From Escherichia coli (lineage in GTDB: Bacteria; Pseudomonadota; Gammaproteobacteria; Enterobacterales; Enterobacteriaceae): a stretch of DNA of 773 nucleotides. Location: the NCBI RefSeq assembly GCF_003334405.1, contig NZ_QOWM01000053.1; one strand, 5' to 3'. This document shows positions 1-773 of this stretch, in pieces (the stretch's first letter is position 1; the number at the start of each line of letters is the position of its first letter). The notes under the pieces are model-generated. The model ran no database searches. It saw only the letters and a list, made by a program, of their open reading frames with translations, and had not been told where the DNA came from. The position numbers and the translations under genes are program-made.

Positions 1-773
1 CACATGCTGAGGGTGCTGTCCGGGTGCAGCTCCGGGTCGGGCAGGCGGTTACCTGCCGGGTCTGTGGCATACGGGATGCGGATATCCAGATTCGCTGCGG
101 TGGTGTGAACGCCGGTCAGCCTGCCGGTGGTGCTGTAGCTGTAACTCCGGGTCTGGCGCGGGCTGCTGATGCGGATGAGTTCGCCGTTGTCGTTCCAGGT
201 GTAATCGCGGTCAGACAGCAGGCTGTTCAGGTGCTGGCTCTGTAACTGCCCGGCAGGGGTATAAGCGGTGGTGAGTTCATAACGGCCGAAGCTGCGCAGC
301 GTTTCCCGGTGCAGGCGGTCGCGGGTGTACTCCACCAGCGGTGTGTCGCCGAGTTTCATGCCTGCCAGGTAACCGCTGCCGTAGGTCAGCCATTCCACGG
401 CGGGCAGGCTGTCCGGTATACAGCGGTTCGCCAGCCCCTGCGCGTTGTACGCATGTCTGGTCTCATGCTGCCAGAGCAGTGCTTCCGTCTGCGGGTGATG
501 CACCGTCTGACGCTCACCGGTCAGCCGGCCTTTCTCATCATACCTGTAATGCACCGCCACCCGGTGCCCTTCGCTGATATGGCTGATGTCTGTCAGCCAG
601 CCACGTTCGTCATACTGCCACCGCTCTGCGGTTTCACCCTTCACGGTGCGGTGCGTGAGGCGGTCTGCTTCGTCATAGTGCCAGTGGGTGACCAGACCCT
701 CATCCTCGCTGCGGATAAGTTTGCCGGTCAGGTCGTGGTGATAACGCTGTGTGCGGCCGTCAAAGCCGGTTTC
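1..773 (-). CDS. rhs: Rhs-family YD-repeat protein, internal core fragment (partial at both ends; polymorphic toxin scaffold)
   Basis: Seen in sequence: reverse-complement frame with first full codon at 773..771 (GAA) and last full codon at 5..3 (ATG) is open for 257 codons with no stop; positions 2..1 are the first two bases of the next codon. Translation contains canonical YD-repeat motifs (RTQRYHHDLTGKL, THWHYDEADRLT, ERWQYDERGWLT, VHYRYDEKGRLT, RDYTWNDNGELI, RSYSYSTTGRLT) at about 21-24 residue spacing. Leucine codons are dominated by CTG and third positions are G/C-rich, as in enterobacterial genes. Established knowledge (from memory, not a database search): the stretch GFDGRTQRYH.DLTGKL ... 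WQYD..GWLTDISH.SEGHRVAVHY.YD.KGRLTGE ... LLWQHET.HAYN.QGLANR..PDSLP.VEWLTYGSGYLAGMKLG.TPLVEYTRDRLHRET.RSFG ... TYTPAGQLQSQHLNSL ... IRIPYATDPAGNRLPDPELHPDSTL is the conserved core of E. coli-type Rhs proteins. The specific paralog (rhsA/B/C/D/E or other) cannot be assigned from this fragment. Confidence 0.93.

Follow-up and report, generated by a model that had tools for sequence, protein, structure and literature searches.

The Rhs cores of Escherichia coli K-12 have been known since the 1980s as G+C-rich, multi-copy and recombinogenic sequences, and solved structures of Rhs proteins and Tc toxins reveal the YD-repeat shell as a cage around the C-terminal toxin. K-12 is not known to have a type VI secretion system, and the function of Rhs in this strain is thus uncertain. 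Here we analyzed a stretch of 773 nucleotides (nt) from an E. coli draft genome (contig NZ_QOWM01000053.1 of assembly GCF_003334405.1), referred to below as the window, and found that it is a segment of the ~3.7-kilobase (kb) conserved core of an RhsA/RhsB-type E. coli Rhs gene. With great confidence, we regard it overall as a fragment of this type of core that forms a collapsed-repeat contig with k=77 ends and belongs to a recombination substrate. The 'Clade I' rhs lineage has been assigned mainly to E. coli/Shigella (Jackson et al. 2009, PMC2935791).

Compared with K-12 rhsA and rhsB, the window has the same sequence, frame, YD repeats and G+C content (core 61.6%, window 62.6%). Its relationship to the Rhs cage effectors is a distant one, the nearest solved structures by sequence being Tse5 (8cp6), an Rhs-Vgr fusion (8qja), Acinetobacter baumannii Tse15 (8uy4, with 8uxt as a further structure), 8h8a and 7q97, with E values from 1e-20 to 4e-9. 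With Pseudomonas aeruginosa Tse5 (8cp6), residues 1-246 of the translated window were aligned to residues 577-825 (E=1.1e-20), and the YD shell is homologous over nearly the whole fragment. Judged by this homology to Rhs cage shells, the 257 residues would be expected in the wall of a beta-sheet cocoon, as part of the YD-repeat beta-shell that encloses the variable C-terminal toxin in solved structures. As repeats, the Rhs cores resemble rrn operons and insertion sequence (IS) elements, which likewise exist as kilobase-scale near-identical copies, give broken or collapsed contigs and recombine to yield duplications or inversions. Unlike those repeats, however, Rhs cores code for protein, are not mobile and far exceed their host in G+C content, and their copies differ by 1-22%, which produces many partial branch points in an assembly graph and not one clean repeat.

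Identity and copy number of the core segment

The window is the reverse complement of the same interval of rhsA and rhsB in K-12 (Table 1), and because it is 100% identical in both genes, it is not assignable to one of the two. Only one of its six reading frames is free of stops; this frame runs on the minus strand from base 773 for 257 codons, and the window's nt 1-2 are the initial two bases of the following codon. The translation equals residues 667-923 of K-12 RhsA and RhsB. It matched NCBIfam NF041261 (RHS_core) at profile positions 675-937 of 1261 with E=3.3e-160 and 535 bits, a score below the full-length cut-off of 2000 bits only because the query is a 257-residue fragment. Three matches to Pfam PF05593 (RHS_repeat) had an independent E value (i-E) below 1e-3, NCBIfam TIGR01643 (YD_repeat_2x) matched residues 193-227 with 30.3 bits against a cut-off of 15.8, and about 10 xYxYDxxGRL-like units could be counted by eye. 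The window makes up 21% of the core and contains no start, tip, immunity gene or flanks; the PxxxxDPxGL boundary between core and tip lies at residues 1238-1247 in RhsA, RhsB and RhsC, ~970 nt past the window end. A scan of the window against Rfam returned no RNA family at the gathering score, and the only internal DNA repeats detected were short, weak pairs of 14-30 nt, as expected from diverged YD repeats.

On the plus strand, the listed open reading frames (ORFs) in the window do not exceed 78 residues, and frame 3 has a single stop in 257 codons, a near-open frame that might be read as a second, overlapping antisense gene. We consider such a gene extremely improbable. Frame 3 is antisense to the Rhs frame and aligned with it codon by codon, so that its stops can come only from the sense codons TTA, CTA and TCA, which are avoided in G+C-rich genes, and synonymous-codon shuffles of the Rhs frame gave exactly one antisense stop in 2,000 of 2,000 cases. 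The antisense gene was therefore rejected, its single-stop frame being a trivial outcome of sense codon usage.

The window is a multi-copy segment, as the earlier note had supposed when it spoke of several near-identical, kilobase-scale copies. When 5,426 complete E. coli genomes were searched, it matched 20,157 places in 3,901 of them, with a median of 5 places and a range of 1-10 per genome, and in 1,146 records the best place reached at least 99% identity. Six places were found in K-12 MG1655, for which a local search of the five rhs loci agreed with the genome-wide search (Table 1). The rhsA and rhsB cores of K-12 differ at only 42 of 3,741 positions, and the window sits within an exact tract of 1,214 nt that both genes share (gene nt 1894-3107 in MG1655); both the number of copies and their kilobase-scale likeness thus bear out the note. 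Seven of the 20,157 places are plasmid-borne and not chromosomal.

The G+C content of the window is 62.6% over 773 nt and varies between 60.0 and 65.8% in sliding windows of 120 nt; the hand count given in the earlier note, 79 G+C among the first 120 nt (65.8%), was exact. Its description of the window, and of Rhs cores in general, as G+C-rich relative to the chromosome is also correct. Non-rhs DNA around the five K-12 rhs loci contains 52.7% G+C over 52,052 nt, the K-12 J53 genome contains 50.8% (PMC5968721), and none of 1,026 windows of 773 nt from the K-12 rhs flanks reached 62.6% (mean 52.6%, standard deviation 4.9, maximum 61.6%). The cores of the K-12 rhs genes measured 61.3-63.3% G+C, and the tips are A+T-rich (36.5-41.3% G+C). 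In the Rhs frame of the window, G+C at codon positions 1, 2 and 3 is 63.8, 47.5 and 76.7%; given the value at third positions, the excess lies largely at silent sites, which would fit the classical idea that a more G+C-rich background was the origin of the cores.

One might instead take the window for a uniquely placed, single-copy part of one rhs gene, with its G+C content reflecting foreign origin and with no issue of assembly or copy number. We found no match in 1,525 of the 5,426 complete genomes, at megablast sensitivity, and a single place in some others, so that a host with one copy could in principle exist. However, two K-12 genes carry the sequence at 100% identity, the matched genomes carry a median of five places, and a free-standing 773-nt contig that recurs in many assemblies is not expected of unique sequence at normal coverage. 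The single-copy explanation is thus very improbable, and the window is better understood as a repeat shared by several rhs genes.

The window as a repeat-bounded contig

The window is an entire 773-nt contig from a short-read assembly, not a slice of a finished locus. Both of its ends lie exactly 77 nt from points at which the K-12 paralogs meet or part. K-12 rhsC is the same as rhsA and rhsB over gene nt 1984-2075 and diverges at 2076 (window 696), and ybfO is homologous to the core from precisely gene nt 2695 (window 77) on, its sequence up to that point (2694) being unrelated. In a de Bruijn graph of the K-12 rhs loci built at k=77, 37 branching vertices lie along rhsA, and both window ends are among them. 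A scan of k from 14 to 300 showed that only k=77 makes the left end branching, and independently only k=77 does so for the right end. With 150-nt reads, 77 is a standard top k of the assembler SPAdes. An earlier candidate, that the window ends mark the divergence points of rhsA and rhsB, was rejected, since both ends lie inside the exact tract shared by these genes and are set by rhsC and ybfO.

Contigs of the same length are on public record. In an exact-protein look-up, every contig on record with the exact 257-residue product was shorter than 2 kb, and the four contigs read from this set each measure exactly 773 nt. The European Nucleotide Archive contig NODE_2065_length_773_cov_23.3 (ERZ508620) is identical to the window and occurs in '20 or more' samples, and three 773-nt contigs of NCBI draft genomes differ from it by one single-nucleotide polymorphism each. 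NCBI names the product 'RHS repeat protein, partial' under several accessions, including one from Escherichia sp. C600e-pL53T-2e, a strain name that points to C600, a K-12 strain. At 90% identity, the product falls into a cluster of 411 members; among the 15 members listed, 14 are partial Rhs proteins encoded on contigs of 324-830 nt. An exact-pattern scan of metagenome contigs matched 113 contigs of greater length but no 773-nt contig; no more than 26 of 115 metagenome stretches end inside the rhs gene, a count that comes mostly from longer contigs and includes some partial stretches, and is suggestive, not decisive. The collapse or fragmentation during assembly of which the earlier note had warned is thus apparent in the window itself, a complete contig with k=77 repeat junctions at both ends that recurs in many independent assemblies. 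In the proposed mechanism, a short-read assembler would be unable to separate the copies, and the contig would stop with the departure of rhsC from the shared path on one side and the entry of ybfO on the other.

It could be objected that the window ends are arbitrary, as in a tile of a longer sequence, and that their 77-nt distance to the paralog branch points is a coincidence. Some coincidences are indeed to be expected with 37 junction vertices in the core at k=77. Nevertheless, both ends fall on k=77 junctions in only 2 of the 2,969 possible 773-nt core windows (0.07%), and on junctions at any odd k from 21 to 127 in only 19 of 2,969 (0.64%). Moreover, each end singles out k=77 independently of the other, and the public record has contigs of just this length and sequence under SPAdes-style names. 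Chance is therefore a scarcely credible explanation, and we retain the assembly-made contig.

Three points weigh against this explanation in its simplest form. First, rhsC of MG1655 joins the shared path at gene nt 2408-2484 and leaves it at 2627-2703, so that a raw k=77 unitig breaks twice inside the window; with the MG1655 repertoire, the window is therefore not a pure unitig free of internal branch points. Second, we infer from the 773-nt contig either paired-read repeat resolution across the 296-nt tract that rhsA, rhsB and rhsC have in common, which is three copies deep in a K-12 assembly, or a source whose rhsC differs. For a K-12 genome, the repeat resolution of the assembler would have to link three graph edges into one path to give the contig. 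Third, the only depth label is the cov_23.3 of one metagenome contig, which comes with no single-copy baseline. For K-12, the collapse is evident from sequence identity, and the contig would accordingly stand for at least two genomic copies.

The core region of the window is also a recurrent source of tiny contigs and 'partial protein' entries in E. coli draft genomes. An exact-pattern scan of genome contigs gave only two matches, both outside E. coli. One is a 433-nt contig of the 'Frankia tisae' draft (NZ_JANEZT010000833.1, cov 0.80) with 100% identity to nt 2351-2783 of E. coli rhsA, and the other is a 2,726-nt contig (JAETOQ010000140.1) of an 'Oscillospiraceae' metagenome-assembled genome (MAG) with 98.6% identity to rhsA nt 85-2810. 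Both are wholly rhs core and appear to stem from contamination by E. coli or from mis-binning.

Table 1 Features of the 773-nt window and places matching it in K-12 MG1655 (gene nt refer to rhsA/rhsB)
Feature	Window position	Strand	Gene nt	Remarks
Partial ORF, open end to end	3..773	-	1999-2769	YD-repeat shell of Rhs core
YD (RHS) repeat, residues 14-46	636..734	-		Pfam PF05593, i-E 1.1e-4
YD (RHS) repeat, residues 54-88	510..614	-		Pfam PF05593, i-E 8.9e-4
YD (RHS) repeat, residues 193-226	96..197	-		Pfam PF05593, i-E 6.6e-5
Terminal 77-mer	697..773	.	1999-2075	Last 77-mer common to rhsA, rhsB and rhsC; vertex in-degree 1, out-degree 2
Terminal 77-mer	1..77	.	2695-2771	First 77-mer shared with ybfO; vertex in-degree 2, out-degree 1
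Stretch distinguishing rhsA/rhsB from rhsC	365..696	.	2076-2407	31 of 33 differences
Tract identical in K-12 rhsA, rhsB and rhsC	69..364	.	2408-2703	296 nt; junction vertices 2408-2484 and 2627-2703
rhsA (b3593)			1999-2771	100% identity to window
rhsB (b3482)			1999-2771	100% identity to window
rhsC				95.7% identity to window, 33 mismatches
rhsD				77.9% identity to window
rhsE pseudogene				78.8% identity to window, partial
ybfO orphan core fragment, downstream of rhsC	1-77			77 nt at 100%, at fragment start (10149-10225 of rhsC-locus stretch)

Recombination between the rhsA and rhsB cores

In K-12, rhsB (3,619,192, plus) and rhsA (3,762,183, plus) are direct repeats that lie 142,991 nt apart from start to start. 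A recA-dependent unequal crossing-over between them was discovered in 1984, as recounted by Jackson et al. 2009 (PMC2935791), and in a K-12 evolution experiment published in 2015, five sequenced isolates carried a 139-kb rhsB-rhsA amplification (PMC4340650). The long exact core tracts are substrates of homologous recombination, with RecA dependence taken from the literature, and unequal crossing-over between the direct repeats yields the recurrent 139-kb amplification. The suggestion of the earlier note that such cores mediate duplications and inversions finds its counterparts in these amplifications and in an inversion and a gene conversion between rhsA and rhsB, both found in genomes of the K-12 derivative J53.

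We searched the complete genomes with a chimeric query that joined 3.3 kb upstream of rhsA to 3.3 kb from the rhsB tip onward. A single place covered at least 80% of this query in 126 of the 5,426 genomes, and the matches at 100% identity came mostly from J53-derived K-12 genomes. The reference J53 genome (NZ_CP028702.1) has the parental arrangements, yibF-rhsA-yibA at 117,414-121,547 on the minus strand and nikR-rhsB-yhhH at 4,054,079-4,058,314 on the plus strand. The J53-derived genome NZ_CP034595.1 holds both reciprocal hybrids, nikR::core::rhsA-tip-yibA at 117,414-121,547 on the minus strand and yibF::core::rhsB-tip-yhhH-yhhI-yhhJ at 4,058,041-4,062,276 on the plus strand. The hybrid arrangement is present in 14 records of complete J53 or J53-derived genomes. 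J53 is known to carry an 825,667-bp inversion flanked by IS5, with one end within the rhsB-rhsA interval (PMC5968721), and because of it rhsA and rhsB now face each other as inverted repeats, with dnaA and oriC within the ~742 kb between them. The genomes of the CP034595 type are explained by a reciprocal exchange between the inverted J53 cores, which inverts the ~742 kb. The order of events would thus be the IS5 inversion first and the reciprocal rhsA x rhsB core exchange afterwards, by which ~742 kb around the replication origin would have been inverted.

The marker positions that distinguish the two cores reveal a further event. In rhsA of the reference J53 genome, eight markers at gene nt 1893-3231, including T1042S, carry rhsB alleles (pattern AAAA-BBBBBBBB-A...), and rhsA of MG1655 and of C600 lacks rhsB alleles at these eight markers. 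This patch is an rhsB-to-rhsA gene conversion of 1.3-3.4 kb that covers the whole window. With this patch, the rhsA and rhsB cores of J53 are identical over nt 82-3467 (3,386 nt). Of the two hybrids, one carries A alleles at the first four markers and B alleles throughout thereafter (AAAA-B...), and the other carries B alleles at the first 12 markers and A alleles from 3468 on (B...-A...). The crossover is located somewhere in the 3,386-nt exact tract and is not placeable more finely. On balance, we lean toward the view that ongoing rhsB-to-rhsA conversion keeps the tract around the window identical (1,214 nt in MG1655, 3,386 nt in J53), and that the J53 tract was the crossover site of a ~742-kb, origin-spanning inversion that separates widely used laboratory stocks from the published reference.

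Natural isolates that carry the hybrid joint present a more varied picture. In the mouse isolate M1 (NZ_CP010180.1, 2641199-2664635; 10302-16928 of the stretch), an ISAs1 element interrupts the rhs gene of the yibF locus, which carries a B-type tip with yhhH and is directly followed by yibA. Here the locus has another tip cassette, as the decoupling of core and tip would lead one to expect (PMC2935791), and not a chromosomal rearrangement. In the chicken isolate VTB97420v and the human isolate FDAARGOS_1249, yibF is joined via the core to yhhH-yhhI-yhhJ-rbbA, genes that are normally 139 kb away. The layout of VTB97420v (NZ_CP178690.1, 110144-138485) reads yibH - IS1 - selB - selA - yibF - rhs (B tip) - yhhH - yhhI - yhhJ - rbbA and may be a natural rearrangement that involves the rhs core. 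The 5.05-Mb genome of FDAARGOS_1249 (NZ_CP069459.1) has a yibF::core::B-tip-yhhH-yhhJ joint at 100% identity to K-12. A tandem rhsB-rhsA duplication was considered for this isolate and rejected, as the regions 139 kb on either side of the hybrid joint contain none of the parental joints that a duplication would leave.

Several observations speak against a general role of the cores in rearrangement. Jackson et al. 2009 reported that no rhs-mediated chromosomal rearrangement was on record among completed natural genomes and proposed a core-guided displacement of the C-terminal tips instead, so that the rhs genes would not be rearrangement hot spots in natural genomes (PMC2935791). The natural carriers M1, VTB97420v and FDAARGOS_1249 have more complex or different contexts. 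The announcement of the J53 genome does not mention a ~742-kb rhsA x rhsB inversion (PMC5968721), and the hybrids of the J53 derivatives could in principle be errors of hybrid assembly across a 4-kb inverted repeat, yet they are seen in 14 records.

It is accordingly conceivable that the repeat matters for assembly and not as a natural rearrangement substrate, its hot-spot behavior being an artefact of laboratory selection and the cores serving mainly for tip replacement. In its favor, this alternative has the survey and the tip-displacement proposal of Jackson et al., the other tip cassette at the hybrid joint of M1, and the restriction of clear-cut rhs rearrangements to laboratory lineages, those of K-12. 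On the other hand, the rhsB-rhsA exchange recurs in independent evolved K-12 lines (PMC4340650), the rhsA x rhsB exchange in J53 derivatives moved 742 kb, and VTB97420v and FDAARGOS_1249 link genes from 139 kb away through the core, which goes beyond tip replacement alone, even though IS1 and other breaks are also present. We therefore rate this alternative as a real but less favored possibility and keep to the core as a recombination substrate.

At the K-12-type rhsB locus, the sequence that follows yhhH, at the position of yrhC in MG1655 (11888-12133 of the rhsB-locus stretch), is annotated by RefSeq as a truncated HEAT-repeat (yibA-like) gene. This suggests that a duplicate of an M1-like rhsA locus gave rise to the rhsB locus.

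Meaning for curation and for E. coli K-12

The window is a textbook Rhs core fragment and an assembly artefact, and only the rhsA x rhsB inversion and the conversion patch of J53 are mildly new. For curation, the window is assembly debris of a collapsed repeat, as are hundreds of related fragments in its protein cluster. Such fragments are unsuitable as a locus with flanks, for counting genes or as the basis for assigning a toxin tip or a taxon, and the rhs core contaminants surface even in the Frankia assembly and the Oscillospiraceae MAG.

The arrangement in J53 is relevant to laboratories that use this strain as a conjugation recipient and map the reads of transconjugants to CP028702. If the inversion is real and reversible, cultures of J53 may be mixtures of two chromosome orientations. 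If true, it would be a sequence-documented chromosomal rearrangement mediated by rhs, of a kind that, according to Jackson et al. 2009, had not been reported before.

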